From IMG/VR virus record IMGVR_UViG_3300017722_002753, positions 14,249 to 78,248 of that record: DNA of 64,000 nt; one strand, given 5' to 3'. The translations under genes were made by a program, and so were the position numbers. This stretch comes from a virus (Duplodnaviria; Caudoviricetes). Position 1 is the first letter of the stretch. Each line of letters opens with the position of its first letter. This document shows, piece by piece, positions 8,386 to 53,261 of the stretch. The notes under the pieces were generated by a model that had not been told where the DNA came from, ran no database searches, and saw nothing but the letters and a program-made list of their open reading frames with translations.

Positions 8386-8705
8386 GTAGGGATTATTTTG
8401 ACAGGTATCAGTTTTTCATAGAAGAAGGAAATTTTAAAATTGTCCCTGGTATAGAATTGCCGATTAAGGGAACTGACAAATATCTTAATTACAAAAAAGG
8501 TAAAACCAGATTGGATAAAGTTTCACAAGACTACTATGGTACACCTGTTTTTGGATGGTTAATTTTACAAGCAAATCCACAATCAAGTAGTATAGAATTT
8601 GAGATTCCCGATAATTTCTTATTAAGAGTCCCGTTTCCCCTAACAAGCTCTTTACAAGATTATAAAAGAGGTGTAGAATTGTATAACTTATATTATGGGG
8701 AGTAA
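8382..8705 (+). CDS. LysM-like baseplate wedge protein (gp53 / tail protein X-like)
   Basis: 107 aa; YKKGKTRLDKVSQDYYGTPVFGWLILQANP...LLRVP is the LysM-type tail motif; ATGA overlap with the upstream gene. Confidence 0.8.
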   Translation: MSRDYFDRYQFFIEEGNFKIVPGIELPIKGTDKYLNYKKGKTRLDKVSQDYYGTPVFGWLILQANPQSSSIEFEIPDNFLLRVPFPLTSSLQDYKRGVELYNLYYGE

Positions 8706-11700
8706 CAGAGAAAAGCATAGTGAGGATATTTTAGTGAAGGTCGATCAGAATAATCTGATGTACATCGACCCTAATAGTGTTATAAGTAAAAAGGGAGAAA
8801 TTTTACCTAGAGGTATAGACCAAGAAAACTTAGTAATGTATGTAAATCTCGAAGCAGATTTAATACCAAGGTCAACATTACTAGCCACTAACGATAAAAA
8901 TACCATGACAGAAATTGTAAAGGGAACTTTAAATTTTATGTCAAACAATGGTAAGGATTTTGATTCAACTTGGACAAACTCATATAACGGTACCGACACC
9001 CCGAGTAAATTTGATAGTGAAGGTAACCCAACAGAATTTAAAGTTACAGACACAAATTTTGATGCATCGGCACAATCATTTGGTATCCAAAGTATTAATA
9101 TAACGGTAAAAGGATCGAACTTTGTACCACAAGTACAAATAAACTTTGTTGACGTTAGAGGTAAAACATTATTTGAATCACCAGAAAATTCACCATATAA
9201 AGCATTCTTTCATATTCCTTGGCCAATATTTTATTTAACCGTTAAAGGTTATTACGGTAAGGCGATAAAATATAGATTACACTTAGTTAAATTCAGTAGT
9301 AAATTTAATCCTGCAAATGGTAATTTTGAAGTTACAACAACTTTTGTAGGATCAACGTATGCTTACATGAGTGACATACCTTTAAAGGCGGCATTATATG
9401 CACCATTTATGTTTGGTATTGAAAGTGTCGACACTCCCCAATTTAATGAAGGAAGTCAAAGTTATATACAAAAGGTTTCCAAGTCATCAAGAGGGTATGC
9501 ATTATTAAATTCGGTTTATTCCGAATACAAGAGAAAAAATTTAATACCAAAAGACTTCCCAACTAAAACACTAAAAGAAGTTGGAATTATTGCAAAATCA
9601 TTAGATAAACTTTTAGAAAAAGAAATATTTGATGAGGTTGTAGATATGAAACTTTTTGCGGCCTTAAAAGAATTTGGTGATAGAATCACATCTTTTGAGA
9701 ACGACATTAAATCTTGGGCAAAAAGAACATTGAGTCAAACACCCATTCCTAAAAATGATATTCTTTATTTTGAACTATCATCGGTGAATAAATCTGAAAT
9801 GACAAATATCACTGGTAGTACATCAACAACAACCTTAGAAAAATTAATTAACAATAATAAAATTAAGGTTAAAGAGAGTCAATTATTAACTTTAAACGTA
9901 ACCAATAAAACAGGAACCAATTTTAATTCTCAAACTATTTTATCGAGAAATGTGGAGGAGGTAGGAAACTACTATATAATAGAAAACGGTGGTAAAGTAT
10001 TGGTTGCAATAAATAAATTAATTGACGACATCGGAGGTATACGTACAACATTTAATCAACAAAAACAGAAATTACAGGATTTTGTTGAACAAAAAATGAA
10101 TACCATCGTTAAAAGAAATGGACCTGGTACTTTAGGTTTTGAACCAACGGTTAGAAATGTTTTTGCAATTATATTAGCCAATGCTGAAGTGTACATCAGA
10201 TTAATGAAAGATATACACCAACGTGCAATCGATGTTGGACAAGAAAGAAAAGACGTAATAAAAAATTTTAGTAAAGAAAGTAAAGGAGACTCAATTTATC
10301 CTTGGCCCGAAATAAAAAAACCTTTCTCCAACGGAAAACAAAATATAATTGCGTATCCTGCCGACGCTGAATTAGTTAGTAAATTACAATCTAACAATCC
10401 TGTCTTGTGGCCTGAAGTTGACTTTATAGAAAACTATATTGGAATTACTACAAATCGATATGACCCATTAGGTAATAAAGAACAAGGTGCAAATAACATC
10501 TCATATATTTTTGAAGGAAGTGATTTTGACGAAACAAAAATAAAACCAATTAGTACATTATTGAATGTTAACGGTTCATTTCCATATACAGATAAAACTC
10601 ACACCGCTTTGTTATATGAAATATGGGAAAGGTCAAAATATGCAACATTAATCGATTCATTTAATACATCAACAGTACAAGAATTGGCACTTAATGAATT
10701 TGGAAACATTTACCAATGTATTCAAGACGACGATGATTTATTAGGGGTACTTTATAATAACGTTAATTCAGATATAGATTTGGAAACGTTATTACCGGGA
10801 CTATCTGTTTTTGATAGATACCCATATAAAAAGGATAATTTACCAACTACACCATCGATTGTTGACGTGTTTGATTTTCCATTCTCAATAAAGCAATATA
10901 CAAATTTAAATAAAGCGACTTCGGTTGCGGATAATTACACAGGTTTAACTGAAAATTTAATATCATATTCGGGACCCGAATATAGAACAAACGTTTATCC
11001 ATTTAACACACCAACATATCTATCCTATATTAATAAAACTAATTTTGATACCGATGAGTTAAAACCAAATGGTACTCTTAGTTTAAACTTAAGTGAAGGT
11101 TTTATATGTTCACCAATTGATGGAAAGGCATGGGTTAAGAGTATATATACCGAAAACTTATTTGGTCAATATTTTAAAATATCAAATAGTAAAACGGAGA
11201 CATCAACAAGTATTTTAAACACACCTTATTTTCATAAACAACTACATGATGATTTCATTAAGAGTAGTCCATATGGTAAATTTGCAACATCCGCTTACCT
11301 ACTTTTAAACTCGTTACCATTTAAAGACTTAAATGATGAAATCGAATTTAATGGTAATAAGACAAGAATGTCTACCATGTTTAGAGAAGTTGGAGCAACA
11401 CACTTTATTCCATATTATTTAATATTAAAATGGGGTTCCATATATCACAGATATAAAACATATATTAACGTCGAAAATATTGGTTTTAATGATATTTTAA
11501 GTGGAGCAACTACACCAATTGACACTCAATTATTTTTTGGTGTGTCCGGAGAAACCTCAACACCGATAACCACATTTACATATACTGATGAATCGTCATC
11601 ACCTGTGACTATAAATTACAGTGACAGTGTGGGGGTACATCCATTTTATGACGCGTTATATCACCAAATTGTAAAAGGAACTAACCACTATGTTGTTAGC

Positions 11701-14523
11701 GGGGGTACAACCGCATTTCAAGATAGTATTGATGAAAAAGTTATTAGAATAAGTAAAAGAAATATTTTTAACAAAACTAATTTTGTAACTCAATTTGTTG
11801 ATAACTCACAATTTGCAGGAAACGGTTCGGATTCAACATACACAATATTACCATGTGATGGTGGAAATATATATAGTGGTAAGAAAGTTGAAACGTTCAA
11901 CAAGGAGACCGCAAGAGTTTTAGGTACAATTGCTGGATCAGCAGATATAACAGGAAATAATATTGCAACTGAAGAACAATTAAATTTTAGAGTTATTTGG
12001 TCTGACGATACAATTAATAACGACTACAGTGGTGTGACGTTACCATCGTATGAAGAATATTTCTCAACAACGGGTAACACATACGAAACAGGAAACTATA
12101 AAAAAGTATTAGATTTAATTGCAACTTTCAGTCCAATTTTATTAGATGAATTTGAAAATATATTTTTAAATTTTGCAAGTGAGAGATTAGTGGAGGAGTT
12201 ACCATATAAAACATTCGATAAGGTAAAATATTATAAATTTCAAGATTTATTAGAAAGTATTCTAACGGTTGAAAAAAAGGCAGGAGACGACTCTCTACCA
12301 ATTACAGAGGTTATTAAAAGTATTAAAGAAAGACAAGTTGAAAAATTAAAACAAGTAAGTAATGATTTATTGGTAAATGATTCTTTATTAAAGGTAACAC
12401 TTGGTAATCCAAAAGAAATTAATCCACATGTTTTGGACGGTTTTTGTGAAATTAGTACAGATAACACATTTAGTTATAATCGTTATTATATTAACGAATC
12501 ATTAGGTAATCAAGGAGATATTAATAGAGATTATTTAAATCTTTATTTAGGTCCAAACAAATTAACTGATGTTGAAAAGGTCTTATCTGACCCAATCACA
12601 GGACTTTCATTTTACGAACAATTCTTTATTGTTAATGATGTTGAATTTAAACCCGAAAACATTTTACAATTCAGACCAATCATTCAACTTTATGCGGGAT
12701 GGGCAAATAGTGGATACACCGCAAACACTGGATTTACCCCAACATCGAATGATTTTAAATCATTTTTAAGATTATCAATATTTGATGGTAACGATGGTTC
12801 AAAAAAGAGACAAACTGATTTTTTACAAAAATTAATACCGTTGTTTGATTATTTAAAAACAAAACAAAGGGTCGGAGGAATAAAATTAGATAATGGTTAT
12901 AATAACGAATTATTAAAACTTGAGATATATAATCACTTTAAATCATTTAATGACAAATGGGTTGCGGGTAATTCTATTGGGCAAAGAACATTATTAGAGG
13001 AGTTTTTATTTTTAGATAAAGCCAATAGAGATATTGGAGATAAGGTTTTCTTGAATTTAGATAAATTAATTGACATCACCGATGAAAAGAATGGAAAACT
13101 AAATTTATATGGAGCGTTAGGAGCATTGATTGCGGGAACAGGATTTGACATGAGAGCCCTACCGGCTTATGTTAATTTCTATGGAACCAACTTTTCAAAT
13201 AAAACCAAAATTACACCATCTAAAACTGTTGCAAAAAATTTATTTGGAACATTCTTAGAAGTTGATTACCAAGAGTCCGCACCAAAAATTGTGGTACAAT
13301 ATGTCGACGGACCCGTTTCTAAACGACCGGCGGACATGGGAGAAAAATATAAATTCCAAGATGATAGTTTTAATATCGGTAACGTAAATAATAATTCATT
13401 AATTATTACAACGCCCGATGTATTCAATACTGAGAATTTATCGAAATCAAATAAAGTGGTTGCGTTTGAAGTTAGTGTTGGTGACCAAAACCAAAGTATC
13501 TTTAAGAGTATACAATTGGACCAAGCAACACTTAAAAACACATCAGAATCATTTGTGGTTTTAGAAAACTTAGCAAGATCTGAATCGGGAGCAGGAACAT
13601 ATAATGTAGACATTGGTTTATTTGATTACTATAGACAAGCGTCATATAGTTGTGAGGTAACATGTATGGGTAATGTAATGATACAACCAACAATGTTCTT
13701 TTATTTAAAAAATATACCAATGTTTAAGGGTTCATATTGGATTACTGAGGTGAGTCATCAAATTAGAGGTACAGGTATCGAAACGACTTTTAAAGGAACT
13801 AGACTTCCATCAATATCGTTACCCGACCCTAAAGATTCGTTCGTATCAAGTTATAGAACCCTGTTTGATAAAATCATGAATAAAGCGGTGGTTAAGATAA
13901 ACGAATTAAACAAAAGCACCACAACAAGTGAAATTGTAATCACTGCACAAGGAAGTTTCGTAATTGATAAAGGTGAGAAAAAAATCAATGGAGAGGAATT
14001 AATAAAAGAATCAAACGTTGATGAATTTGGTATCCCATACAATGGAGCAGAAAATGAAAAATATATCCAAAAGGTTAAATTTGGAAATAAAGAATGGTAT
14101 AGGGCGGTTGCAATTGAAATGGGAAGTGAAAAATACCCAATACCGGCTGACACAACTATGTCAATCGTTAATTTAGAAGGAACTTTAAAACATATTAAAT
14201 GGTCGGGAATTAAGGATAATGGTCAGAAATACTACTCAACCAAATTTATACCGTCATCTACACCTGCTAAATTATTACTTTCTAATCAGACCCAAACGGT
14301 GTTTTTAAATCCTGAAAAACCTAGCGATGAAATAACATTAGACCACTATGTAAACCAAGTATTAGAGAACGATGTGGTAAAATATGACCAATCAACATTC
14401 CAAGGTCCAATTAATATAGGACCAAATGTTATAGGTTATGGTATCGGATTATCCAAGAAACTGATGGATGATTTAAAAGTTTTTCCAGGTGGAGTCCTTT
14501 ATTTCCGAATAAAAAAGAAATAA
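8695..14523 (+). CDS. Large baseplate hub protein (gp27 / late control D-like with long insertions)
   Basis: 1942 aa; SFGIQSINITV...VDVRG near the N-terminus and YSCEVTCMGNVMIQPTMFFYLKNIPMFKGSYWITEVSHQI...TTFKGTR near the C-terminus; follows the LysM gene. Confidence 0.68.
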   Translation: MGSNREKHSEDILVKVDQNNLMYIDPNSVISKKGEILPRGIDQENLVMYVNLEADLIPRSTLLATNDKNTMTEIVKGTLNFMSNNGKDFDSTWTNSYNGTDTPSKFDSEGNPTEFKVTDTNFDASAQSFGIQSINITVKGSNFVPQVQINFVDVRGKTLFESPENSPYKAFFHIPWPIFYLTVKGYYGKAIKYRLHLVKFSSKFNPANGNFEVTTTFVGSTYAYMSDIPLKAALYAPFMFGIESVDTPQFNEGSQSYIQKVSKSSRGYALLNSVYSEYKRKNLIPKDFPTKTLKEVGIIAKSLDKLLEKEIFDEVVDMKLFAALKEFGDRITSFENDIKSWAKRTLSQTPIPKNDILYFELSSVNKSEMTNITGSTSTTTLEKLINNNKIKVKESQLLTLNVTNKTGTNFNSQTILSRNVEEVGNYYIIENGGKVLVAINKLIDDIGGIRTTFNQQKQKLQDFVEQKMNTIVKRNGPGTLGFEPTVRNVFAIILANAEVYIRLMKDIHQRAIDVGQERKDVIKNFSKESKGDSIYPWPEIKKPFSNGKQNIIAYPADAELVSKLQSNNPVLWPEVDFIENYIGITTNRYDPLGNKEQGANNISYIFEGSDFDETKIKPISTLLNVNGSFPYTDKTHTALLYEIWERSKYATLIDSFNTSTVQELALNEFGNIYQCIQDDDDLLGVLYNNVNSDIDLETLLPGLSVFDRYPYKKDNLPTTPSIVDVFDFPFSIKQYTNLNKATSVADNYTGLTENLISYSGPEYRTNVYPFNTPTYLSYINKTNFDTDELKPNGTLSLNLSEGFICSPIDGKAWVKSIYTENLFGQYFKISNSKTETSTSILNTPYFHKQLHDDFIKSSPYGKFATSAYLLLNSLPFKDLNDEIEFNGNKTRMSTMFREVGATHFIPYYLILKWGSIYHRYKTYINVENIGFNDILSGATTPIDTQLFFGVSGETSTPITTFTYTDESSSPVTINYSDSVGVHPFYDALYHQIVKGTNHYVVSGGTTAFQDSIDEKVIRISKRNIFNKTNFVTQFVDNSQFAGNGSDSTYTILPCDGGNIYSGKKVETFNKETARVLGTIAGSADITGNNIATEEQLNFRVIWSDDTINNDYSGVTLPSYEEYFSTTGNTYETGNYKKVLDLIATFSPILLDEFENIFLNFASERLVEELPYKTFDKVKYYKFQDLLESILTVEKKAGDDSLPITEVIKSIKERQVEKLKQVSNDLLVNDSLLKVTLGNPKEINPHVLDGFCEISTDNTFSYNRYYINESLGNQGDINRDYLNLYLGPNKLTDVEKVLSDPITGLSFYEQFFIVNDVEFKPENILQFRPIIQLYAGWANSGYTANTGFTPTSNDFKSFLRLSIFDGNDGSKKRQTDFLQKLIPLFDYLKTKQRVGGIKLDNGYNNELLKLEIYNHFKSFNDKWVAGNSIGQRTLLEEFLFLDKANRDIGDKVFLNLDKLIDITDEKNGKLNLYGALGALIAGTGFDMRALPAYVNFYGTNFSNKTKITPSKTVAKNLFGTFLEVDYQESAPKIVVQYVDGPVSKRPADMGEKYKFQDDSFNIGNVNNNSLIITTPDVFNTENLSKSNKVVAFEVSVGDQNQSIFKSIQLDQATLKNTSESFVVLENLARSESGAGTYNVDIGLFDYYRQASYSCEVTCMGNVMIQPTMFFYLKNIPMFKGSYWITEVSHQIRGTGIETTFKGTRLPSISLPDPKDSFVSSYRTLFDKIMNKAVVKINELNKSTTTSEIVITAQGSFVIDKGEKKINGEELIKESNVDEFGIPYNGAENEKYIQKVKFGNKEWYRAVAIEMGSEKYPIPADTTMSIVNLEGTLKHIKWSGIKDNGQKYYSTKFIPSSTPAKLLLSNQTQTVFLNPEKPSDEITLDHYVNQVLENDVVKYDQSTFQGPINIGPNVIGYGIGLSKKLMDDLKVFPGGVLYFRIKKK

Positions 14524-33960: not shown

Positions 33961-34817
33961 TGGAAATATTATTTAAAAATAGTAACATGAACTTGGTTAT
34001 AAACCAAGAACAAGATTTTAAAACAGATCTTGGATGGCAAGAAAACGCACAAGAACTTGAAGACCAAACTCTTGAAAAAATTATTAATCCTGTTGATAAT
34101 TATGAAACTGTTAGATACATACATCAACCATACAATTCATCATTATCAGGATTAACAATATCACAATCGGATATATGGTTTAAGTTTCATTTTTTAAGTG
34201 GAAGTACATATGTTACCGATTACGAACCAACAGGTTTATCATTTAAAGAAAATAATGAAATTAGAGAATTTTTTAAAAGGAGTTTTTTTAGATTAGAATT
34301 TTATAAAACACCAAATGGTGAGGCACCAACTAGAGCAAACAGAAGATTGGTTTTTACAAAAAATTTACCACTAACATCTGGTGAACAATATAATTTTTAC
34401 AATGAAACCCTAACAGGTGTGACGGATGTAAAAATATATAAACCTGTCTTTATGGGTACGAACTACAAAAATTCAGAAAACTTATATATATTCTGGTTTC
34501 AAGACGATTCACCATTTGAAGAATCTAATTTAATTGGAAATATATTTTACATGACAGCAAAATTTTTTAATGCTGAAAATGGTGAAATAACTGACTTCGT
34601 TACCAATTCAGATGTTGATGTTGATATTGACCAAGGTAGATATGGAATTCGTACCAATCCTATTCAATTTTTTGAAAAAGATAATAGTGGCGGGCAAATA
34701 ATTGAACCTGATGACATGTATTACTGTGTTACAATTGATAGAACCGATTTTAGTTATGTGGTTAATAGTGACTGTAGTTGTGTGTTCACGGGAGGTTCCG
34801 CAAATTTAAATGGTTAA
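33960..34817 (+). CDS. Virion structural protein
   Basis: TAATG overlap with the upstream stop (the track starts at 33954); C-terminal CSCVFTGGSA. Confidence 0.65.
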   Translation: MEILFKNSNMNLVINQEQDFKTDLGWQENAQELEDQTLEKIINPVDNYETVRYIHQPYNSSLSGLTISQSDIWFKFHFLSGSTYVTDYEPTGLSFKENNEIREFFKRSFFRLEFYKTPNGEAPTRANRRLVFTKNLPLTSGEQYNFYNETLTGVTDVKIYKPVFMGTNYKNSENLYIFWFQDDSPFEESNLIGNIFYMTAKFFNAENGEITDFVTNSDVDVDIDQGRYGIRTNPIQFFEKDNSGGQIIEPDDMYYCVTIDRTDFSYVVNSDCSCVFTGGSANLNG

Positions 34818-36996: not shown

Positions 36997-39900
36997 TGGC
37001 AAGAAGGAAAGTTCCAAGTCAGGCTGCTTCAGGTGCTGAAACATTCAGCGATAGTTTAGTCGGTGGTCAAATCACTGACGGTAGCAGTCAATTGACTAAT
37101 ACGAACTTTGCTCTTGATAGGTTAATTCCAGAAAAAGATAGTAAAACATTCAGAACAACTCCGTTTTCGGAGTTTTTAACTTTGGATGATTTAAAATCGG
37201 AAGAGAAGGATTCACAGACAACACAAACAAAATCAGAAAAAAAGAGGTCAATCTCATTTAGAGGTGCAAAAGACGATGCGGGAAAATCATTATTTGGTTC
37301 TTTAAAATCAAGAATTGCTGCATCAATCAGTAATATAATTGAGAAGTACCCCGCTGCTATCATGGTGGACAAAGATAGTTCATCAAGTATTAGTGGTAAG
37401 ACAGCATACAACGTTTCATATGACGTATCAACAAAAACAACCGAATTCGATATTGAAACTGGTATGTTTTATAATACGTTTGATTTATCGTATGAAGCAC
37501 CAAATAGTAATACAACACCTGAGACAACCAACCCACTTAGAAATTTCTATTCATCATTTAAAAAATATGTTGTTGAAATAAGTGGTGTAACTTATGATAT
37601 TATTGATTACGAACAACCGGATGTAAATAATATTATTACGTTAACGGTTAGTGGTAAACCATTTACAGGTACAACATATGACCAAAGTTTTATTATCAGA
37701 CCAAACAATGGTTTAACTGAAGAGTTCTTCAGTGGTCTTGATGATTTAGAGGAAATATTACTTAACAGAGAGACAAATCCAAAATATAGAGCATCATTTA
37801 GAGTCCCAAGAGATACATCTGGTGGAAGTAAAACAGATTTAATTACTGTAGAATATATTTGGCCGGTTGCAAAAGACGGATGGAACTTACAGGTTGTTGG
37901 TTTAGCGTTTGATTCTTATACATCAGGATTAAGTGATGTAGCTGAGGAGATAGATGATTATAAATCTAACTTATTTGTTAGATTCATGTCAGCACCTCAA
38001 TTATTTGAGTTTGATAGTGAAGATAAAAAAGCGGAAGCGTTATTCCAATTATATGGACAGGCTTTCGATAAGGTAAAAAAATACATTGATAACATTGCTT
38101 ACATGAGAAATGTAAGTTATGATGGTATTAACAACTTACCCGATTTACTTCTTAAAAATTTAGCTAACAATTTAGGTCTTAACACAATCAAATTATTTGA
38201 TGAAAAAGATTTAGATGAAATTTTATATACTCGTAATGATGTACAATATTCAGGTTTAACAATTGGTAAAACATTGGTGGATGCTGAATATGAATTCTAC
38301 AGAAGAATTCTCGTTAACTTAGCTTACATATACAAATCAAAAGGTACACGTAGCTCGATAAAATTCTTACTAAGATTTATCGGAGCACCCGACCCAATGA
38401 TTAAAATTGATGAGTATAGATATGATATTGTTTCATATCCAAAGTCTCATAATATTGATGATGATATTCGTGATTTAATTAGAGGTAATAAAACATTTAA
38501 TACCGGAATATTCAACGCGACGACATATCAATATACCATTCAAACTATCACAGGTTCAACAACACTAACAAGAGACAATTACCCTGTTGAAGAAGTTACC
38601 GCAAGTGCGAAGAAATATGAAGACTTATCAAACGATACCTTTTTTCAAATGGGGTCTGGTTGGTATGATTTAACATTAGACCACAGATCACCTGATATAT
38701 TAGACGAGGACATCTCAATAACAACTGGTAGAACTAAAACGTTACTAACTAAACCAAAAGGTTACACTTTTGGTGAAGATTATTTTGATTCATATAGAAC
38801 TTTACCAGGTTTAGACACGGGTTATGAATTAGTACCTGTTATTGACAATAACCAAGGAGAAGTTGTAAATTCAAATTCAGAGTTAACCTTCAATAGAAAA
38901 AATATAAATGCATATCTTTCTTCTGCTCAGGCAATTGATTATGACATCTATACGAAATCAAGAAATTTAAATTTATCATTCGGAAGCGCAACATTAGAAC
39001 CACAAACGGGAGTAACGTTTGCAGAATTTGCGGATAAATTATTACATGAACAAATTTTAAATTCTAACATTATTAGATATAAGAAAAATTATATCAAGTT
39101 AGAAGACATATATCAATCTTATATTAAATCAAATTCATTTACACCATACAATTTTCCCGATGTAAATGAATTTATTAACAGAATGGGTCCTTATTGGACT
39201 CAAATTTTAGACCAAATTATTCCATCCACAACATTATGGACAGGCGGTAATTTAATTGAAAACAATAAATTTAAAAGATCAAAATACTCATATAAATTCG
39301 GATGTCAACCAAAAGAATTTATCGAGGAATTATTCCCAAGTTTTGAAAATGCAATTGAAGAAGATTTTGAAACCTTATTAGGTGAAGAAGATAATTTCAG
39401 AGGTCTTTTAAATCTAACAGGTTATACATATAATCCTGTTATTGAAATCGACGGTATCCAATATGTGGGAGATAGTGTTATCGTTAGTGGTAACACATCA
39501 ACAGCAACAAGTGCAAAATTATTTAACACTTTTCCACAAACGGGATGTACAAGTCTAAACGAAGGTTCAACTCTTCCGTTAATTTGTGATTATAAGGATT
39601 ATTTAAGTCCTGATGTAACAAAAATTAAAGAACTTTGGAAAACATCGTTAACAAATTTAATCAATGAGATTAATAACGAAGAGACCATGGATGGTCCTGG
39701 ATGTATTGATTCATATGCACCATATACTGCAGCAACAAGTGGTGCAACATGTACTCAAGTTGCGAAACCAAAATTAGAATACACATATTATACTGATGTA
39801 GATGGAATTGAAAAAATTAAATTTACAACTATAAAGTATGGTCCTGACGATTGTTCAGTTAAAGATTATTTCACATATAGTTTTGATTCAGTTTACACAT

Positions 39901-42900
39901 CAACACCAGGTTGTTATTTAGATATTGAATTTACCACACCATGTGACATTTATTCGGGAACAACTGAAGATGGTTGTTCATATGATACACAAGTTAATTG
40001 TATTTTAACTAGTGATATAGTTGTTAACTTTAGTGGTATAACTGGTGTACAAAAAGGTGATGTTAAAAATTTACCAAATGTATATGTTTACAAAAATTGT
40101 GAACCAATACATAATCAATATACAGGGTACACAACGGGAGGAACGTCATTTTATAACGTAACTGAATGTACATACATCTTAAATGATGTTAGAGACGTTG
40201 ATGAAATTGATTTATTATTTTTAGACGCCGCGAACTGTGAAACAAAAGTAAAAATCCAAGGATTTGATACCCAAATGGTTTCAGGCGACACAGGTAATGG
40301 TTACAAAACCGGTTTTAAAATTGTACCAAAAGTACAATATAGAAACTCATATAACTATGGTTTAAAATCAGATACTAAAGTCATTATTGTAAGTGGAGCA
40401 ACTATCAGTAATAGTACAACACCAACAGATATTGAAAATTATTTATTAGCTGGTACGTTAGTTAAAACTAATGTAAGTGGTGTTACAAATGGTAATGTTA
40501 TATTAACTGCCGAGCATTTAAATTGTTCAGGTTTTACCCACCAAGATTTTAGAAGTGCTAATTTAAATAATGACTATTCATTTAGTTTTAATTATAAAAC
40601 ATCTGTTGTAACAGATAAAGAGTGTTTAGGTTCAGTTAGAAAAAGTATAATCTCAGGTTTAACAGTAAACGAACAAGTTGTTGTTTTTGAATATCTACCA
40701 ACGAGTAAGTTAAGAGTTTACACTAAAAAAGAAGTTAACGAAACAACATCAGCGGTAACTTTAAGAAAAAGTTATTTCTTCGATGATAGATTCCCTGAAT
40801 TTTTACAAGTAAAACCAATACAAATTGAACCATGTTGTGATCATTCGGAAGATTATTACGAACATGGTGACTATATTATAACAGAGAAAGGAGAATTAAT
40901 TGAGGTATTAGCGGTTGATTTAAATTACTGTGAACCAAATTTATATTTCAGCATTAATGTAACGAGTGATTCATCAATTGAAAACTTAGTTTTATTTAAT
41001 GGTAACGGAAACTTCGAACCATTAATACAACACAAGTATGATAATCACATGCCAATTGTTGTTGATATGGGTGAACAACAATATTACACAAATAATACAT
41101 GTTGTACATATGATGAAGATATTCATGGTATTGAGGTTCTAACAAGAGACCTATCAACACCGTGTGTTACTCCTTATCCTATTATAGTACCATGTGGTAC
41201 AGTGTACCCAACACCAATGCCGACGGTAACTGCGGGACCAACACCAACACCTAGTGGTACACCGATGCCGACTCCTACACCAAGTAGTAGTGCGACACCG
41301 CCTCCAACAGGAACGGCAACACCTACACCTACTTTAACAGGAACGGCAACTTCAACCCCTACACCGACTCCGAGTACCACATCAAGTGCTACTCCGACTC
41401 CTACTGGAACGAACACACCAACTCCTACATTAACAGGAACTAACGAACCAACTGCAACTCCGACACCTACACCAAGCGCAACTCCAAACTGTGAGTTTGA
41501 AGTAACTGCATTTGTTGCAACTCCAACACCAACGCCAACAGTAACAGAGAATTGTAATTTTGAAGTGACCGCATTTGTTGCAACACCTACACCAACTGGC
41601 ACGAATGAACCAACTCCAACTCCAACAGAAAATTGTGATTTTGAGGTAACAGCATTTGTTGCAACACCAACCCCTACGCCGACAAATACAAATACACCAA
41701 CACCGACAGAAAATTGTGATTTTGAGGTAACGGCATTTGTCGCGACACCTACACCAACTGGTACTAACGAACCCACCCCAACTTCAACGGAGAATTGTGA
41801 ATTTGAAGTAACAGCATTCGTAGCAACTCCAACTCCAACAGGAACAAACGAGCCGACAGCAACTCCTACATCAAGTGTAACACCTACCCCAACTCCAACT
41901 GAGAATTGTGATTTTGTTGTTACAGTAGACATTGCAACGCCAACTCCTACACCAAGTAATACACCAAGTAGTACTCCTGACCCAAGCTCAACTCCAACGC
42001 CGACCCCAACAGAAAACTGTGAGTTCGAGGTGACTGTCGATATTGCAACGCCAACTCCTACACCAAGTAGTACACCTGACCCAAGTGCAACTCCAACACC
42101 TAGTCCAAGTGGAACTAACGAACCAACTAATACCCCTACTCCAACTCCAACTGAAAATTGTGACTTTGAGATTGTGGTAGACATCGCAACGCCAACACCA
42201 ACAGGAACGAGTGAACCAACTCCTACTCCTACATTAACAGGTACTAACGAACCAACTAACACACCTACTCCAACTCCAACTGAAAATTGTGAGTTTGAGG
42301 TGATAGTTGATATTGCAACACCCACACCAACCCCTACATTAACGGGAACAAATGAGCCGACAGCAACCCCTACATTAACAGGAACCAACGAACCAACTAA
42401 TACTCCGACGCCAACTGCAACAGTAAATTGCGACTTTGACGTTGATATAAATGTTGCAACCCCAACCCCTACGGGAACAAGTGAGCCGACTCCTACTCCT
42501 ACATTAACTGGTACTAATGAGCCGACACCAACAGGAACAAGTGAACCAACTCCTACTCCTACATTAACCGGTACTAACGAGCCAACTAATACTCCGACAC
42601 CAACACCAACTGAAACAAACGAGCCAACACCAACTCCAAGTAATGATTTGTGTGATGTCATCATTGATATATTACCTGACTCAACTTCAACACCAACTCC
42701 TACATTAACAGGAACAAGTGAGCCGACTCCAACTCCTACATTAACAGGAACTAATGAGCCGACTCAAACACCAACACCATCTGGTACAAATGAACCAACA
42801 CCTACGGCAACTGCGAATTGTAATTTCGATGTTGATTTAAACATTGCAACTCCAACTCCTACACCAACGTTAACAGGAACTAACGAGCCAACACCAACTG

Positions 42901-43085
42901 AAACAAACGAGCCAACACCAACACCAACTCCAAGTAATGATTTGTGTGATGTTATTGTTGATATTTTACCTGACCCAACACCAACTCCAAACCCAACGGC
43001 AACACCTGACGTGTTTGGAATTATAACAGAAGATGGTATTTATATAATATCAGATGAAAATGGAAATACACTAATACCTGAATAA
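36996..43085 (+). CDS. Baseplate wedge gp7 / P2 gpI-like giant protein with a mucin-like C-terminal repeat array
   Basis: 2029 aa; RRILVNLAYIYKSKGTRSSIKFLLRFIG is the gp7/gpI-type motif; the last about 620 aa are PT linkers with 13 single-Cys modules. Confidence 0.65.
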   Translation: MARRKVPSQAASGAETFSDSLVGGQITDGSSQLTNTNFALDRLIPEKDSKTFRTTPFSEFLTLDDLKSEEKDSQTTQTKSEKKRSISFRGAKDDAGKSLFGSLKSRIAASISNIIEKYPAAIMVDKDSSSSISGKTAYNVSYDVSTKTTEFDIETGMFYNTFDLSYEAPNSNTTPETTNPLRNFYSSFKKYVVEISGVTYDIIDYEQPDVNNIITLTVSGKPFTGTTYDQSFIIRPNNGLTEEFFSGLDDLEEILLNRETNPKYRASFRVPRDTSGGSKTDLITVEYIWPVAKDGWNLQVVGLAFDSYTSGLSDVAEEIDDYKSNLFVRFMSAPQLFEFDSEDKKAEALFQLYGQAFDKVKKYIDNIAYMRNVSYDGINNLPDLLLKNLANNLGLNTIKLFDEKDLDEILYTRNDVQYSGLTIGKTLVDAEYEFYRRILVNLAYIYKSKGTRSSIKFLLRFIGAPDPMIKIDEYRYDIVSYPKSHNIDDDIRDLIRGNKTFNTGIFNATTYQYTIQTITGSTTLTRDNYPVEEVTASAKKYEDLSNDTFFQMGSGWYDLTLDHRSPDILDEDISITTGRTKTLLTKPKGYTFGEDYFDSYRTLPGLDTGYELVPVIDNNQGEVVNSNSELTFNRKNINAYLSSAQAIDYDIYTKSRNLNLSFGSATLEPQTGVTFAEFADKLLHEQILNSNIIRYKKNYIKLEDIYQSYIKSNSFTPYNFPDVNEFINRMGPYWTQILDQIIPSTTLWTGGNLIENNKFKRSKYSYKFGCQPKEFIEELFPSFENAIEEDFETLLGEEDNFRGLLNLTGYTYNPVIEIDGIQYVGDSVIVSGNTSTATSAKLFNTFPQTGCTSLNEGSTLPLICDYKDYLSPDVTKIKELWKTSLTNLINEINNEETMDGPGCIDSYAPYTAATSGATCTQVAKPKLEYTYYTDVDGIEKIKFTTIKYGPDDCSVKDYFTYSFDSVYTSTPGCYLDIEFTTPCDIYSGTTEDGCSYDTQVNCILTSDIVVNFSGITGVQKGDVKNLPNVYVYKNCEPIHNQYTGYTTGGTSFYNVTECTYILNDVRDVDEIDLLFLDAANCETKVKIQGFDTQMVSGDTGNGYKTGFKIVPKVQYRNSYNYGLKSDTKVIIVSGATISNSTTPTDIENYLLAGTLVKTNVSGVTNGNVILTAEHLNCSGFTHQDFRSANLNNDYSFSFNYKTSVVTDKECLGSVRKSIISGLTVNEQVVVFEYLPTSKLRVYTKKEVNETTSAVTLRKSYFFDDRFPEFLQVKPIQIEPCCDHSEDYYEHGDYIITEKGELIEVLAVDLNYCEPNLYFSINVTSDSSIENLVLFNGNGNFEPLIQHKYDNHMPIVVDMGEQQYYTNNTCCTYDEDIHGIEVLTRDLSTPCVTPYPIIVPCGTVYPTPMPTVTAGPTPTPSGTPMPTPTPSSSATPPPTGTATPTPTLTGTATSTPTPTPSTTSSATPTPTGTNTPTPTLTGTNEPTATPTPTPSATPNCEFEVTAFVATPTPTPTVTENCNFEVTAFVATPTPTGTNEPTPTPTENCDFEVTAFVATPTPTPTNTNTPTPTENCDFEVTAFVATPTPTGTNEPTPTSTENCEFEVTAFVATPTPTGTNEPTATPTSSVTPTPTPTENCDFVVTVDIATPTPTPSNTPSSTPDPSSTPTPTPTENCEFEVTVDIATPTPTPSSTPDPSATPTPSPSGTNEPTNTPTPTPTENCDFEIVVDIATPTPTGTSEPTPTPTLTGTNEPTNTPTPTPTENCEFEVIVDIATPTPTPTLTGTNEPTATPTLTGTNEPTNTPTPTATVNCDFDVDINVATPTPTGTSEPTPTPTLTGTNEPTPTGTSEPTPTPTLTGTNEPTNTPTPTPTETNEPTPTPSNDLCDVIIDILPDSTSTPTPTLTGTSEPTPTPTLTGTNEPTQTPTPSGTNEPTPTATANCNFDVDLNIATPTPTPTLTGTNEPTPTETNEPTPTPTPSNDLCDVIVDILPDPTPTPNPTATPDVFGIITEDGIYIISDENGNTLIPE
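41208..43010 (+). repeat. Coding Pro/Thr repeat array with interspersed NC(D/E)FxVxxxxA modules
   Basis: Seen in the translation; degenerate DNA with some near-exact duplicated blocks (e.g. ccaagtaatgatttgtgtgatgt twice). Confidence 0.92.
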
Positions 43086-47695: not shown

Positions 47696-49195
47696 ATGAC
47701 AGTTACATTCACATTAAACTCAATATATTTGGGTACGGAAGCGGGGCCATTTAATATATCAGGAACGACCGATTCAAACGCTACCACAGAATTAACAACA
47801 AATTTAAGTCTTGCTAGCTTGACCTCTGGTTACACTATTAGTGGAATCGACGATAACACAACAGGATTTACGATACAAAGTGTTGGAACATGTGTAAACT
47901 ACATCGTTAAACCCGTATCACAAATTATACCTTACGCACCTTGTACCGACGGTATGGACGTTGTATTCTTAGTTGACTATACAGGTAGTATGGGTGGTGC
48001 AATCAATGGAGTTAAAACATCAATTGCTAACATCGCATCAACAATTGTTACCGAGTCAAATAGTAACTATAGATTAGGTTTGGTTATTTTTGATGAATAT
48101 GCAAGTGCAACTAATTCAAATTATGATGATAAAATTGCATACACATCATTACCATTGGCTCAAAGACACATTAACACTGGAGTACCACCATTTTATCAGT
48201 GGATAACTGCGGTTGAAGTAATGTCATCAAATAACGAAGCATCATTTACAACTCAATTAAATAAATTAAACACAGTTGATTTTCCGTTAGGTGATGGTCA
48301 AAATGCACCTGAACCATCTGACATGGGTGTTGATTTAGTTGGTTTAGAAAGTTTTGCGGGAGCATTTAGAAACAACGTAGCTAGATTAATAGTATTGATT
48401 ACCGATAATACTCCAGGTGGTGACGATGACACTTACAATGCAACTGACGTTAATTTTGTAAATGGTTTAATTCCACAATTAGTTAATCAAGGAGTTAGAG
48501 TTTTATTAATGACAACCGCAGGAACTAACGTACTTTACGATTTAGCAACTGGAACTAATGGTGTAGTATCTGCAGGTTTCTCTGGTTCAGATATTATAAC
48601 TGCAATTGAAGAAGTATGCGTTCCTCAATATCAATATACCGTTCTTCTTAACGAAAACCCAACATTAGAACAAACATGTAACAACGATGGTTCAGGTGGT
48701 AATAGTTCATTATTTAGTACGTCAAATGCGTTAAGTATTGGTGATATATTATATTACTCAGCTTCTCCGGGTACATATTACGTAACTAGTAACGAAGGTT
48801 ATTCGGTAAAAATTACAAATACAACAACAGGTACTGTATATGCTGTTGAGTTTGATTTAAATACGGGTGTAATAACTGCCGTACAAGAATGTACCGCACC
48901 ATCGGCAACCCCAACTCCAACGGCAACCACCTCTTTTGATAGTGAATTTGTTGCGTTCGGTTCAAATAGAACAATTGCTTGTGACGAGTTAACTAGTCCA
49001 AGTACAACTGTTTACTTCACAGCTGCGGATTGGAACTCAATTCAATTAGGGGATGTTTTATATACTTCCGACTTAGTAACACCTGTAGCTAATGGGTATT
49101 ACTATAACGTATCAGCAACACAATATTTGGAAGTTGTTAGAATGTTAGGTGGTGAAGTAATAGCAATTACCAACTGTGCAGGAGCAACCGCATAA
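47696..49195 (+). CDS. von Willebrand factor A domain virion protein with two Cys-bracketed C-terminal domains
   Basis: DVVFLVDYTGSM (MIDAS-like), RLGLVIFDE and LIVLITDNTP. Confidence 0.85.
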   Translation: MTVTFTLNSIYLGTEAGPFNISGTTDSNATTELTTNLSLASLTSGYTISGIDDNTTGFTIQSVGTCVNYIVKPVSQIIPYAPCTDGMDVVFLVDYTGSMGGAINGVKTSIANIASTIVTESNSNYRLGLVIFDEYASATNSNYDDKIAYTSLPLAQRHINTGVPPFYQWITAVEVMSSNNEASFTTQLNKLNTVDFPLGDGQNAPEPSDMGVDLVGLESFAGAFRNNVARLIVLITDNTPGGDDDTYNATDVNFVNGLIPQLVNQGVRVLLMTTAGTNVLYDLATGTNGVVSAGFSGSDIITAIEEVCVPQYQYTVLLNENPTLEQTCNNDGSGGNSSLFSTSNALSIGDILYYSASPGTYYVTSNEGYSVKITNTTTGTVYAVEFDLNTGVITAVQECTAPSATPTPTATTSFDSEFVAFGSNRTIACDELTSPSTTVYFTAADWNSIQLGDVLYTSDLVTPVANGYYYNVSATQYLEVVRMLGGEVIAITNCAGATA

Positions 49196-49283: not shown

Positions 49284-49742
49284 ATGGGATTAAACATTAG
49301 AATTCACGACATTAACGTACCCGCTTCATTCGAGTTATTTTACAAAACAGGTAATACGCCTGGTAATATGACTGTGATTGAAAATGGTTACACACAATTT
49401 GGTGGAATATATCCATCGAGTACTAATGAAGTTGTTTTCACTGATGCAACGTTTAACACCCAATATTGGTTTAAGATTCAATATACAGGAGTAACAGGAC
49501 AAGAAAATTCGGTAGGTTATATCATTGAAAATATTAAAACACACCAACCTGTAGGTCACATTTATTATGCACTACATTGTTGTGATTTTTCAGGTGGAAC
49601 TGCAGAGTTTTACACAGGATGTACGTTCTCAGGAGGTATGGTTGTTTACGGTGTAAGTTTAGACCCAACCGCAACCCCGACAGCAACTGCGCTCGATTGT
49701 TCATTTGCTTCAGGTTCTGTGGTATATAATTCATCGACTTAA
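49284..49742 (+). CDS. Small virion/decoration protein with a PT linker and CxF motifs
   Basis: 152 aa; own TATTTATA box (49271-49278). Confidence 0.6.
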   Translation: MGLNIRIHDINVPASFELFYKTGNTPGNMTVIENGYTQFGGIYPSSTNEVVFTDATFNTQYWFKIQYTGVTGQENSVGYIIENIKTHQPVGHIYYALHCCDFSGGTAEFYTGCTFSGGMVVYGVSLDPTATPTATALDCSFASGSVVYNSST

Positions 49743-49772: not shown

Positions 49773-51104
49773 ATGTCATTTTCAGCAACAGTAAATTTAG
49801 GAACAGTAGGAGTAGCAATTACTTCAGTTAAATTGTACGGATGTACAGGTATCAGTGGAGGTAGTTGTACCGGTTGTACCGCATTAACAGGATACGAAAG
49901 TGTGAGTGTAAGTACATTCCCAACATCAGGATTAACAGTAAGTGGTATACCAAACGGTGTAACTTACATTCAAGCGGAAGCTTTAGGTGCGTGTAGTGAC
50001 GACCTTGTTAAACAATGTATTTCAATATCAGGAATACCCGGTGCAACACCAGCTCCAACAAGTACTCCTACACCGACACCGACAGGAACATCAGCACCTA
50101 GTGCAACAGCAACCCCAACACCAACAGCAACTGCTGGTCCAACAGCAACACCAACACCAACAGCAACAGCGGGGCCTGGTCCAACAGCAACACCAACACC
50201 AACACCAACAGCAACTGAAACACCATATTATTTACAATTGAGTCGTTGTGATTCTGAACCCAATACAGTTACAGGATGGACGATAAATACATATGTACAA
50301 TCACAAATAATGGTTGGTGATATATTTTATTCTGCGGGTGGATTTTATTACCAAGTAATTAATTATCAAACAGCACAACCAAGTCCAGCTGGAACTATAG
50401 ATGGTTCAAAAGCATCTGAAGAATATCAAAGTTGTGATGATACACCAGAACATTATGTTGCACCACCTGTCAACCCAGGGGTAACATTATTAATTCATAC
50501 GGGTCAAACATTTAATAACACAACAGAACCTTGTGCTATGTATGAATCGGCAATTCAGACCAATAGTTTAAATGTTTATTTAAGTGGACACACAATACCA
50601 GCAAATGGTGATTACGCATATACAACGGCGGTTTGTAATGAAACATATATTGGAAATTCAGAATATTATGCATCATTGGTGAGTGGTGCTAGATATGTGT
50701 TTACAATTGGTGAATTTGGTTATATTAATAATGTAACTCTTTGTAGTGCAATACCAACCGCAACGCCAACGCCAACCCCTAGTCCAACAGCAACATCAGT
50801 AGTGTTATATGGAATATTTAGATCTACAGGATTATCGACTTCTAATGGTCATTGTAATAACAACTATGTAACCAATGCTCAATTCTATGGTCAAACAACA
50901 TCACCTAATAGTCTATATGGAACCATTGTGTATGCAGATACAGAATATACACCATTTGACGGTGGTAGTTTATGGTATGCTTTAGGTAATAATAGTCTAT
51001 CTAATACAAATGATTTACCATACTATTCAATACAAATCATTAGTACTGGTGAGGTAACTAGTGTACAATATTTAACAAGTTGTTCTAGTGGTTCTGATGC
51101 ATAA
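49773..51104 (+). CDS. Modular Cys-rich virion/decoration protein with PT linkers
   Basis: 443 aa; TATTTATA at 49761-49768; shares N- and C-terminal domain patterns with 47696..49195. Confidence 0.65.
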   Translation: MSFSATVNLGTVGVAITSVKLYGCTGISGGSCTGCTALTGYESVSVSTFPTSGLTVSGIPNGVTYIQAEALGACSDDLVKQCISISGIPGATPAPTSTPTPTPTGTSAPSATATPTPTATAGPTATPTPTATAGPGPTATPTPTPTATETPYYLQLSRCDSEPNTVTGWTINTYVQSQIMVGDIFYSAGGFYYQVINYQTAQPSPAGTIDGSKASEEYQSCDDTPEHYVAPPVNPGVTLLIHTGQTFNNTTEPCAMYESAIQTNSLNVYLSGHTIPANGDYAYTTAVCNETYIGNSEYYASLVSGARYVFTIGEFGYINNVTLCSAIPTATPTPTPSPTATSVVLYGIFRSTGLSTSNGHCNNNYVTNAQFYGQTTSPNSLYGTIVYADTEYTPFDGGSLWYALGNNSLSNTNDLPYYSIQIISTGEVTSVQYLTSCSSGSDA

Positions 51105-51131
51105 TATTAAAACAAAAAATAGATATAAAAT

Positions 51132-53261
51132 ATGAGCTTTCTTGATAGTAATAACTTAGAATTTTTAGCGGCAAAAATCACCCAAAAAGGGAGAAATGCA
51201 ATTGCTAAGGGTAATTTTAAAATTGATTATTTCCAAGTTGGGGATTCTGAGTATGATTACACAACACCATTTAATGTTTTAACAGGACAAACAACACATC
51301 AAAAAGTTATGGCACCATTTGACAAAGACAGTGGTGTGAAATATCCATTTGGTTTGGACTCAAATGTTATAACAACATATGGTGTACCGGTTCAAAATTC
51401 ATTAACAACAACAATTAGAAATATTATGGGTCCTGCGGGATTTGTTTCTAATTATTTAGAATATGATGCGGTTGAGTGTACAGGTACAACAGTTGAGTGT
51501 GTTGCAGATGAAGTATCGTTATCGAGCATTTCAGGAGGAACTTCAATTAATATTACAGACGGAGAAGAGTTTCAAAATTGTGGTTATATAACATTAGTGT
51601 TCGATAGATTCAATGGACCAACTGCGGTCATCACAGGTAACACAAACTCATTAGTTTATAAAGTTTTAAGTATATCAGGTAATACCCTTAATTTAGATAG
51701 AGCATTACCAAATCTTTCATCGTTAAGTGGTTATGCACAAGTTGTATGTAATAGTTGTGAACAGGAATACCCTATCACGGCAACAACTGCAAGTGTATGT
51801 TCACCAAACGATATTGACACAACACAACAATTAAATTCTTGGACACTTAATATTGTTTGGGATAAAAAATTAATAGGTACTGATGTCGGACCATTAGACG
51901 AAACATTATCAGGATACACTGGTAACAGATATGTTTCAGTTAAAGAATTATTGGGATACACTTCAACAGGACAAACGTTCACAAACATGACAGGAGGAAC
52001 TGTTGATTACCCAACATCATATAAAAATACGTTGGGCGAACAAATATTAGTTAAACCTAATGAACAAAGATGTATTGCGGTAATTCATTATTCAGAAGTC
52101 GGTGATTTAAGAAATGACCCCGAAAGATTTTTCAGATACGATGATTACATTAGTTATAAAACAGGAATTACAGGTTCAGATATTTCATTAGTTGATGATG
52201 CCGACGGAAACCCAATAAGTGATACTGAATATTTTGAAGTTTATTTACCATTCTTATTATATCATAGAAGTACAGGTACAACAATCGGAGCAAAGTTTTT
52301 AATGGATACAACTGACTACTACGTCAAGTCAACTAAAAACGAAAGACATCAGTTGATGTTTAGATTTTTATTAGATGAAATGGGTAATAGAGTTGGTAAA
52401 GTATTCACTAAAAATAAAATAGTAGTATTCGATGACCAAGAGTTAGTTGCAATTTTAGATTATAGAAGTAATAGAAAATATACATTACCTTCTCCTAAAG
52501 TCAATACCGTTGCAAGTGATGATGTTGAAGCGAATTCATTATTCTCAGGAACAACAGGACAAACATTTTTTGTTACCTATATGTTTAGTGATACACCATA
52601 CGGTACAAGTTCAGCGTTTAATGGATTACCATGCAACTATTTTACATCAATTAGTGGAGTAAAAGTACCATCAAGTTTAACAATCAAATTTAGTGGAACA
52701 TCATTCCAACATATGGAATCAACATTAAATGGATTTAGAAGTGGATTTAACGCAAAATATTTTTACGTATTAATTCAAGAAACCGACCCCGAAGAATCAC
52801 CAATATCTTTTAGTTGGACATTAATCGACAAAACAAGTAGTTTAACAACAACAGGTGGATACATCGTACCATCAAGTTTAACAGGTAATACCATTGTAAT
52901 TACACAAGATGATTTTGATAGTGGTGTTAATTTTGATTTAGAGACTCATATGGGTTTAGATTATTTAGGTTCACTAACATCTACAACACAACCACAATTT
53001 GGTGATGAACAACCATTTCCCGGTAGTATTCGTTTATTGAGAGCCATGGATATTGAAGAATTAAATTTCTTAGTTAACCTACCATCAACACAATTTACAA
53101 CAACACAAAACCCTACGTTTGTTAGTGGAACTGGAAATTATCCAATGATGACTGAAGTTGCTTTATTAGATAGTAATAAAGAAACATTAGTAGTAGCTAA
53201 AGCAACAACCCCAATAAAAAGATTGGGTACACAAGTTTTTGCGGTTAAGTTAGACTTCTAA
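51132..53261 (+). CDS. Tail-collar/fibre attachment-like structural protein with a large insert
   Basis: N-terminal KITQKGRNAIAKG..DYFQVGDSE and C-terminal TEVALLDSNKETLVVAK..PIKR resemble the two halves of the tail-collar fibre domain. Confidence 0.55.
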   Translation: MSFLDSNNLEFLAAKITQKGRNAIAKGNFKIDYFQVGDSEYDYTTPFNVLTGQTTHQKVMAPFDKDSGVKYPFGLDSNVITTYGVPVQNSLTTTIRNIMGPAGFVSNYLEYDAVECTGTTVECVADEVSLSSISGGTSINITDGEEFQNCGYITLVFDRFNGPTAVITGNTNSLVYKVLSISGNTLNLDRALPNLSSLSGYAQVVCNSCEQEYPITATTASVCSPNDIDTTQQLNSWTLNIVWDKKLIGTDVGPLDETLSGYTGNRYVSVKELLGYTSTGQTFTNMTGGTVDYPTSYKNTLGEQILVKPNEQRCIAVIHYSEVGDLRNDPERFFRYDDYISYKTGITGSDISLVDDADGNPISDTEYFEVYLPFLLYHRSTGTTIGAKFLMDTTDYYVKSTKNERHQLMFRFLLDEMGNRVGKVFTKNKIVVFDDQELVAILDYRSNRKYTLPSPKVNTVASDDVEANSLFSGTTGQTFFVTYMFSDTPYGTSSAFNGLPCNYFTSISGVKVPSSLTIKFSGTSFQHMESTLNGFRSGFNAKYFYVLIQETDPEESPISFSWTLIDKTSSLTTTGGYIVPSSLTGNTIVITQDDFDSGVNFDLETHMGLDYLGSLTSTTQPQFGDEQPFPGSIRLLRAMDIEELNFLVNLPSTQFTTTQNPTFVSGTGNYPMMTEVALLDSNKETLVVAKATTPIKRLGTQVFAVKLDF

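Follow-up and report, generated by a model that had tools for sequence, protein, structure and literature searches.

What does a five-residue sequence that recurs across the tail proteins of an uncultured phage do, and is it read by an enzyme? The question is raised by a 64,000-nucleotide stretch of DNA (positions 14,249 to 78,248, here called the window) of the IMG/VR virus record IMGVR_UViG_3300017722_002753, a single-contig record of 78,248 bp (contig G000:C1). Its outward-facing tail, baseplate and fibre proteins carry the sequence hydrophobic-Ser/Thr-Gly-x-Thr, which we refer to as the tag, at approximately eight times the frequency expected by chance. A first-pass annotation of the window had noted the [ST]GxT core of this sequence in peripheral virion proteins and proposed that it is a protein-modification sequon. 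Judging from the sequence comparisons described below, we give about an even chance to the reading that the tag serves as a sequon by which a phage enzyme O-glycosylates the virion in the cytoplasm. We put forward more tentatively, at somewhat under an even chance, the fuller proposal that in a large clade of uncultured freshwater jumbo T4-like phages a virus-only glycosyltransferase of the GT-B fold reads the tag and sugar-coats the sheath, the baseplate, the fibres and the insertion domain of the capsid.

Tag counts in the window and its contig

Expected counts were taken as the mean of 2000 residue shuffles of each protein. The 45 open reading frames (ORFs) of the window contain 95 tags, 76 of which are preceded by a hydrophobic residue or Thr. 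In an unbiased scan of all a-b-x-c patterns, SG.T (33 versus 4.9 expected) and TG.T (43 versus 7.9) ranked at the top, preceded only by the Pro/Thr-linker and Cys-bead repeats of a 2029-aa protein. Seven proteins, of 709, 609, 413, 1942, 2029, 287 and 152 aa, had p values of 0.0005 to 0.0015 by shuffle. The nine window proteins on which the first-pass annotation or the shuffles bear most directly are as follows.

8695..14523, + strand: 1942-aa hub-like or central baseplate protein, 9 tags versus 1.54 expected, p 0.0005
32131..33960, + strand: 609-aa outer baseplate protein, 11 tags versus 0.69
33954..34817, + strand: 287-aa protein, 3 tags versus 0.20, p 0.001
34821..36062, + strand: 413-aa protein, 8 tags versus 1.12
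36996..43085, + strand: 2029-aa fibre-like protein, 20 tags versus 4.24
47696..49195, + strand: 499-aa protein, 3 tags versus 1.26, p 0.12, non-significant
49284..49742, + strand: 152-aa protein, 4 tags versus 0.40, p 0.0015, the smallest tag-dense protein
49773..51104, + strand: 443-aa protein, 5 tags versus 1.83, p 0.04, a weak excess
51132..53261, + strand: 709-aa protein at the end of the structural block, 13 tags versus 1.33

The manual [ST]GxT counts of the first-pass annotation for the 709-, 609- and 413-aa proteins and the hub (13, 11, 8 and 9) were reproduced, and its forecast that composition alone would give roughly 1-2 matches in the 709-aa protein agrees with the shuffles. The excess itself survives 2000 residue shuffles, as the 609-aa protein illustrates. 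The statement that the 2029-, 152-, 443- and 499-aa proteins also carry many sites held for the first two, was borne out weakly for the 443-aa protein and was not upheld for the 499-aa protein. The range over which the motif was originally described, 8695-53261, does contain an excess, but the excess also extends beyond it: upstream of the window the contig encodes a sheath with 8 tags versus 1.2 expected and a 535-aa protein with 5 versus 1.2.

NrdA, SbcC, the tail tube and gp6 contain no tags, as had been annotated. The tape measure had been placed on the same tag-free list, which does not hold if it is the 1593-aa protein encoded at 3604-8385 (3 tags versus 1.2 expected). The proteins of replication and nucleotide metabolism are tag-free except for one RNase H site and the Walker A sequence TGKT, which accounts for the single match in DnaB, as had been noted, and likewise for the one in UvsX. 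A 645-aa protein also has no tags. Searches of Pfam and PHROGs assigned no families to most of the tagged proteins.

The window contains a T4-like contractile-tail module (a gp19-type tail tube, gp25 and a gp6/Baseplate_J protein) and also encodes gp32, a UvsX-like RecA, RNase H, DnaB, NrdA, an SbcCD-like pair, a ClpP-type prohead protease and a late sigma factor. The part of the contig that precedes the window encodes the sheath, which is 956 aa long, together with a family-B DNA polymerase and an SNF2 helicase. Since the record is 25% complete as estimated by CheckV, and since the contig runs collinear with the 44-115 kb stretch of a complete 310-kb genome with terminal repeats (IMGVR_UViG_3300017917_001524, hereafter G005), the phage is a jumbo myovirus of approximately 300 kb. 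The capsid, portal and terminase genes and all glycosyltransferase genes are located off the 78-kb contig. The phage is frequent in lake metagenomes, and its closest cultured relatives, Flavobacterium phage immuto and the Maribacter phages, are distant. The comparisons below draw on 27 related records, referred to by G-numbers, and on cultured phages such as T4, immuto and XacN1.

The tags of the 1942-aa protein are confined to residues 373-1345, and its orthologues have 14 tags in G001 and 10 in G003. The 609-aa protein has more than 1000 metagenome homologues, with 97% and 93% identical copies on contigs of 229 kb and 294 kb. In the 2029-aa protein the tags lie within the first 1220 residues and are followed by Pro/Thr-linked Cys beads. 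The region 43112-51104 is a variable fibre cassette with no counterpart in G005. It begins with a 636-aa collagen-like tail fibre protein (43112-45022; Pfam Collagen, E 2e-26), in which [ST]GxT occurs at chance (4 versus 4.3 expected) although the protein is very rich in Ser, Thr and Gly. Residues 88-136 of the 499-aa protein have a weak match to von Willebrand factor A (E 8.5e-5, slightly below the Pfam cut-off). A gp7-like protein of 1457 aa (27064-31437) has 2 tags and its G005 and G001 orthologues have 11 each; only approximately 600 residues can be aligned at 50% identity. The tag load swings widely in this one family.

Specificity, turnover and structural setting

A specificity profile was obtained by substituting each position of the tag in turn and comparing observed with expected counts (89 tags). 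Position 1 is Ser (40 versus 5.3 expected) or Thr (49 versus 7.0), while Asn (5 versus 4.5) and Asp (2 versus 3.6) occur at chance. At position 2 Gly alone is enriched (89 versus 12.2). Position 3 is free, with acidic residues and Pro scarce. Position 4 is Thr (89 versus 11.9), and neither Ser (12 versus 9.3), Val (9 versus 7.6) nor Ile (3 versus 7.3) is enriched there. The residue at position -1 is Ile, Leu, Val, Tyr, Phe or Thr, and never Asp, Glu, Ala, Pro or Arg. This specificity is tighter than expected from turn propensity. It bears directly on the alternative that the tag is a structural idiom, namely an ST-turn that contains Gly and leads into a strand beginning at Thr; this would stabilize the loops of long-lived particles and would have no reader enzyme. 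An idiom of this kind does not account well for the lack of enrichment of Asn and Asp at position 1 or of Val, Ile and Ser at position 4.

Beyond position -1 no conserved residue and no strand periodicity were found over 380 sites in four genomes, and BLAST among the tagged proteins revealed no homology; together these results rule out a shared domain or repeat. A motif at the DNA level is ruled out because codon choice at the sites does not depart from the background, Ser being drawn from both of its codon families. Replacement of deamidation-prone NG and DG turns is likewise ruled out: both dipeptides occur at expectation, and that they are not depleted also counts against the structural idiom. 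Given the absence of context and of homology, the background codons and the undepleted NG and DG, the tag is a self-contained five-residue element under selection at the protein level. Neither a domain or repeat nor a signal in the DNA has left it behind.

Comparison of orthologues revealed how the sites change. In an alignment of the 609-aa family (32 sequences, 58-93% identical to the query) the tag is present in at least one sequence at 38 columns, six of them conserved and approximately 20 sporadic, and individual proteins have between 5 and 18 tags. Sites 74, 180, 225, 276 and 366 are kept in 26-30 of the 32 orthologues. At the core sites the Gly is invariant or nearly so, Ser and Thr swap at position 1, and position 3 drifts; that Gly is the best conserved position is a point in favor of the structural idiom. 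The sheath has 7-8 tags in each of four genomes, with genome-specific positions in its N-terminal variable region. Orthologues of the 413-aa protein have 11, 8 and 9 tags, the 301-aa orthologue of G005 having nine; two sites are invariant and the rest shift, and orthologues of the 709-aa protein have 13, 18 and 10, with four sites common to all four genomes and many that are private. In these alignments positions move at constant density, which is the mode of evolution of sequons and other short linear motifs and is not what the structural idiom leads one to expect.

Structural models were examined for the 609-aa protein and the sheath. The AlphaFold2 model of the 609-aa protein was poor, with a predicted local distance difference test score (pLDDT) of 52 (32 close homologues). 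Its usable part, residues 160-310, is a common six-stranded barrel that is undiagnostic (best Z 7.1). The sheath model was good (pLDDT 85.9, predicted template modelling score 0.84, 91 diverse homologues). Three of its eight tags lie inside a poorly modelled variable insert. The five modelled sites are placed at a hairpin tip (site 306), in irregular loops (sites 512 and 590), at a helix end (site 655) and at a helix N-cap (site 732). In the model these five contexts differ and every one of them is non-regular, a diversity that argues against a single structural idiom, even though the hairpin tip at site 306 would suit one. Across the sheath family the tag density per 100 aa is 1.19 in the variable inserts versus 0.22 in the conserved core. 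The variable domains of T4-type sheaths point outward.

Lineage limits and the candidate enzyme

Among the relatives the tag is in excess genome-wide in G005 (133 versus 41 expected), G001 (184 versus 71), G003 (201 versus 114) and G018 (174 versus 48). G021 is weakly positive (86 versus 40) and G023 is ambiguous (locus ratio 1.7). The excess in G005 is concentrated in 11 ORFs that encode the sheath, the gp7-like protein, outer baseplate proteins, fibres and a few others, and the relatives' capsid proteins have 2-4 tags versus approximately 0.6 expected. G018 belongs to a distant lineage with a G+C content of 0.27 and has the same specificity profile, with Ala as a minor substitute for Gly. 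In 150 representatives of the sheath family, which has roughly 8000 homologues, the excess is approximately fourfold in near relatives and patchy farther away.

No excess was found in the virion proteins of T4 (including gp18, gp10, gp12 and gp34), in the two best matches to the gp6 of the window, LR756508 and Microcystis phage Mel-JY01, in XacN1 (74 versus 71.6) or in E. coli phage tuntematon (29 versus 23.8). The excess is also missing from the sister clade G006-G011, to which the complete genomes G007 and G008 belong (58 versus 47 genome-wide in G008). The baseplate and fibres of immuto have no excess except for the familiar GDGSGLTGI fibre motif. Nearly all of the [ST]GxT matches in the fibre and spike proteins of immuto (L108 32835-38454) stem from a repeated N-terminal motif, F-x-G-D-G-S-G-L-T-G-I, which is unrelated to the tag. 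A generic feature of fibres or beta-proteins is thus ruled out by T4, immuto, Mel-JY01, LR756508, XacN1, tuntematon and G008. In the capsid, sheath, hub-like, gp7-like and fibre orthologues of G008, x-G-x-T occurs 51 times versus 48 expected with no preference for Ser or Thr, whereas the same five families in G005 have 82 versus 47.5, the entire surplus being due to Ser or Thr at position 1. Since x-G-x-T is at chance in G008, these protein families fold without the tag. A structural idiom should be universal, yet the homologous sheath, capsid or baseplate proteins of T4, immuto, Mel-JY01, XacN1 and G008 do without it.

The lineage limits could also reflect the host: a host enzyme may modify the tag, the phage displaying a host sequon, and the hosts of tag-negative clades would be without the system. 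The G+C content of the tag-negative clade, 0.39 versus 0.27-0.34, suggests another host, and the nearest cultured relatives infect Flavobacteriia, hosts that glycosylate proteins. However, the Bacteroidota sequon requires Asp before the Ser/Thr and is used in the periplasm, whereas no tag has Asp in that place and the parts of the tail are put together in the cytoplasm. Moreover, because their G+C content spans 0.27 to 0.37, the tag-positive lineages probably have several hosts. Overall we regard modification by a host enzyme as highly unlikely.

Candidate glycosyltransferases (GTs) are found in the relatives, each of which has 3-9 GT2 matches. A conserved block 5-12 kb upstream of the syntenic block encodes a 263-aa GT-A, a 355-aa GT-B and a 407-aa GT-B, with PhoH and dUTPase genes in between. 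The 355-aa GT-B resembles PDB 8xsg, the Actinobacillus glucoside glucosyltransferase AmGGT (PMC12159676). As both the 263-aa GT-A and the 355-aa GT-B occur in tag-positive and tag-negative clades, they were rejected as discriminating writers; they could still extend a glycan. The two-domain GT2 PF13712 occurs in the main clade only and is absent from G017, G018 and G022, and is therefore not general. GT41 (PF13844) is absent from G001, G003, G004, G005 and XacN1, while control genomes matched, and GT9 (PF01075) is sporadic, being present in only G003 and XacN1 among five records.

GT60 gives a strong match in the relatives (PF11397, E 3e-72), is carried by G001, G003, G004, G005 and G012-G016, and in G005 lies directly after two tag-rich genes. 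It was rejected as the writer of the tag because XacN1 has a GT60 without a tag excess and the tag-rich G018 and G017 have no GT60. GT60 accompanies (Pro-Thr)n linkers, of which both lineages have many (window 36996-47645 and 49773-51104; XacN1), and for this reason it suits mucin-like linkers rather than the [ST]GxT tag. Among 50,697 cultured phage records GT60 was found in four jumbo Xanthomonas/Stenotrophomonas phages only (XacN1 AP018399 ORF334). In XacN1 (219791-223508) a carbamoyltransferase gene, ORF333, directly follows the GT60 gene, an order that suggests a decorated sugar.

Of the 367 G005 genes, an unbiased comparative screen picked out five that are shared with G001, G003 and G018 while G008 and XacN1 lack homologues. 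They encode the 407-aa GT-B, a 243-aa protein, a 231-aa protein, a thioredoxin and the tag-rich 709-aa protein. A full-length orthologue of the 407-aa GT-B (35-61% identity) is present in 17 records. Thirteen of these are tag-positive (G001, G003, G005, G012, G014-G016, G018, G019, G022 and G024-G026); the other four are the weakly positive G021, the ambiguous G023 and two records outside the tag counts, G004 and G013. None of the six negative-clade records (G006-G011) has the GT-B, nor does XacN1, and the small tag-positive fragments G020 and G027 have no orthologue. In 18 of the 36 relatives' loci that reach far enough, it lies no more than 10 kb upstream of the DNA polymerase gene (polymerase 82-86% identical), and its place in the relatives corresponds to a position just past the left end of the present contig, approximately 7 kb upstream. 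The fold assignment comes from the G018 orthologue, which scores 39.9 bits against a PF00534 cut-off of 26.4, and from weak PF13439 and PF13692 matches of the G005 copy, which is encoded at 36554-37777. The family is virus-only, and its atlas neighbours are virus-only GT1 or RfaG-like clusters. The thioredoxin, the 243-aa protein and the GT-B have a common tag-positive distribution. Their genes are adjacent in G018 (145134-148003; L298:5134-8003) and dispersed in G005.

We propose the following mechanism. Selection would keep the tag in putatively exposed loops of the sheath insertion domains, the hub-like protein, the outer baseplate, the fibres and, weakly, the capsid. A cytoplasmic glycosyltransferase of the phage would O-glycosylate the Ser/Thr of the tag before or during assembly, and the tail would thereby acquire a sugar coat. 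The top candidate for the writer would be the virus-only GT-B of approximately 407 aa, which is GT1/GT4-like. A motif read in trans is favored over a structural one because of the strict specificity for two hydroxyl residues, the varied loops, the turnover that keeps density and the absence of the tag from the homologues of other clades. Glycosylation is the simpler reading in that two hydroxyl residues are required and the only recognizable co-distributed enzyme is a glycosyltransferase. That there is any modification of the tag, its nature as a sugar, the choice of acceptor residue and the identity of the writer are all inferences from these comparisons. The report of at least two virion glycoproteins in the jumbo phage XacN1 (PMC5852040) provides a precedent, and the mycobacteriophages considered below provide another. 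If the GT-B acts clade-wide, the sites may evolve in the manner of the glycan-shield sequons of animal viruses, a view that we hold tentatively.

The same short-linear-motif behavior would be shown by a tag that is read in trans by something other than a glycosyltransferase, either through phosphorylation, nucleotidylylation or ADP-ribosylation, or through the docking of a decoration protein, assembly chaperone or host factor. This explanation could draw on the thioredoxin and on the two proteins of 243 and 231 aa, all distributed like the GT-B, while no kinase, Fic or ADP-ribosyltransferase domain was found among the scanned proteins, which cover part of the relatives' genomes. We consider another reader in trans rather improbable.

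Several observations weigh against the glycosylation reading. In the 609-aa model the final Thr of all three confidently placed sites opens a strand or forms a bridge, and the [ST]-G-x before it is coil. At residue 590 of the sheath (contig 11155-14025) the positive clade has T-I-T-G-[AT]-T and the negative clade [ST]-V-D-G-[IV]-T, so that Thr and Asp are swapped at position 1 and the turn is otherwise kept. Some sites are, on these grounds, ordinary turns that could be explained structurally. Mapping onto structures, which the first-pass annotation had suggested, placed the modelled sites in loops, some of them ordinary turns. Both observations favor the structural idiom, the D-G-x-T of the negative clade at sheath 590 being an isosteric Asx turn. 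Set against the evidence from specificity, turnover and lineage, we judge the structural idiom to be unlikely.

For glycosylation by the GT-B there are further difficulties. The sugar genes that the first-pass annotation had proposed to look for are missing from the 78-kb contig, where no glycosyltransferase or sugar-nucleotide gene was found in what is approximately 25% of the genome; the candidates come from relatives. G017 (74% complete) has a tag-rich sheath (15 versus 3.6 expected), yet the GT-B was not found in it. On the sheath tree the link between GT-B and tag comes down to roughly a single gain and a single loss and is thus confounded by phylogeny, and the tag-negative clade, with its higher G+C content, may have another host. 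In addition, the GT-B has dUTPase and PhoH genes as neighbours, and its substrate could be DNA. The original interpretation of the motif as a modification sequon is partly supported. It agrees with the strict specificity, the placement in loops and variable outer domains, the turnover, the lineage limits and a co-occurring glycosyltransferase among those of the relatives; the link to an enzyme is less secure.

Comparison with known glycosylation systems

Literature searches found no described [ST]GxT sequon on phage particles. If our proposal is true, no acceptor motif for the glycosylation of tailed-phage particles would have been defined before the tag, and a coat on the contractile sheath and baseplate, beyond capsid and tube, would likewise be a first. 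An excess of the tag would be a simple sequence read-out for predicting glycosylated virions in metagenomes, and enzyme and tag would form a compact pair for glyco-engineering in the cytoplasm. It would also provide a handle on tail shielding in abundant lake phages, whether from proteases, grazers, non-productive adsorption or lectin-like host defences.

EOGT transfers O-GlcNAc to C-x-x-G-x-(T/S)-G-x-x-C on EGF repeats; it is a eukaryotic, luminal GT61 that requires a folded cysteine frame. As in the tag, the acceptor Ser/Thr stands directly before Gly and after an aromatic or hydrophobic residue. Its sequon differs in having no Thr at +3, and no homologue of the enzyme is present here. General O-glycosylation in Bacteroidota is periplasmic and host-encoded and uses the sequon D-(S/T)-(A/I/L/V/M/T). 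It shares with the present case a sequon of three to five residues enriched in surface proteins and, in all likelihood, the host phylum. The tag has Gly after the Ser/Thr, however, and Asp at position -1 in 0 of 89 cases, so that the resemblance to the D-(S/T)-hydrophobic sequon drawn in the first-pass annotation does not hold.

Aah and TibC, which belong to the bacterial autotransporter heptosyltransferases (BAHT, GT9), reportedly heptosylate the repeats of the autotransporters AIDA-I and TibA (Charbonneau et al. 2012; Lu et al. 2014). Likeness to the proposed system lies in a cytoplasmic O-glycosyltransferase, a short Ser/Gly strand-loop-strand element, beta-rich surface proteins and many sites in each of them. 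The Aah/TibC sites lie in a 19-residue repeat, whereas the tag is not part of a repeat and GT9 is not clade-wide. GT60 includes the Thr-specific enzyme of mucin initiation in T. cruzi (PMC3769586) and Dictyostelium Gnt1, a polypeptide alpha-GlcNAc transferase. The family thus acts on protein Thr and the relatives encode a homologue; the difference is that GT60 does not track the tag.

The mycobacteriophages offer a comparison among tailed phages themselves. Virions of the Che8 type are reported to be O-glycosylated by phage-encoded glycosyltransferases (Freeman et al. 2023), with Ser/Thr-rich C-terminal extensions of the capsid and tail-tube subunits as acceptors. This O-glycosylation is echoed in PMC11256854. 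Here the candidate acceptor is an internal, scattered 5-mer; unlike in the mycobacteriophages, the tail tube has 0 tags, the relatives' capsid has 2-4, and the putative writer is a different, virus-only GT-B. What our proposal would have in common with the mycobacteriophage system is a tailed phage whose own glycosyltransferases modify its structural proteins in the cytoplasm and so coat the exposed surfaces of the particle.

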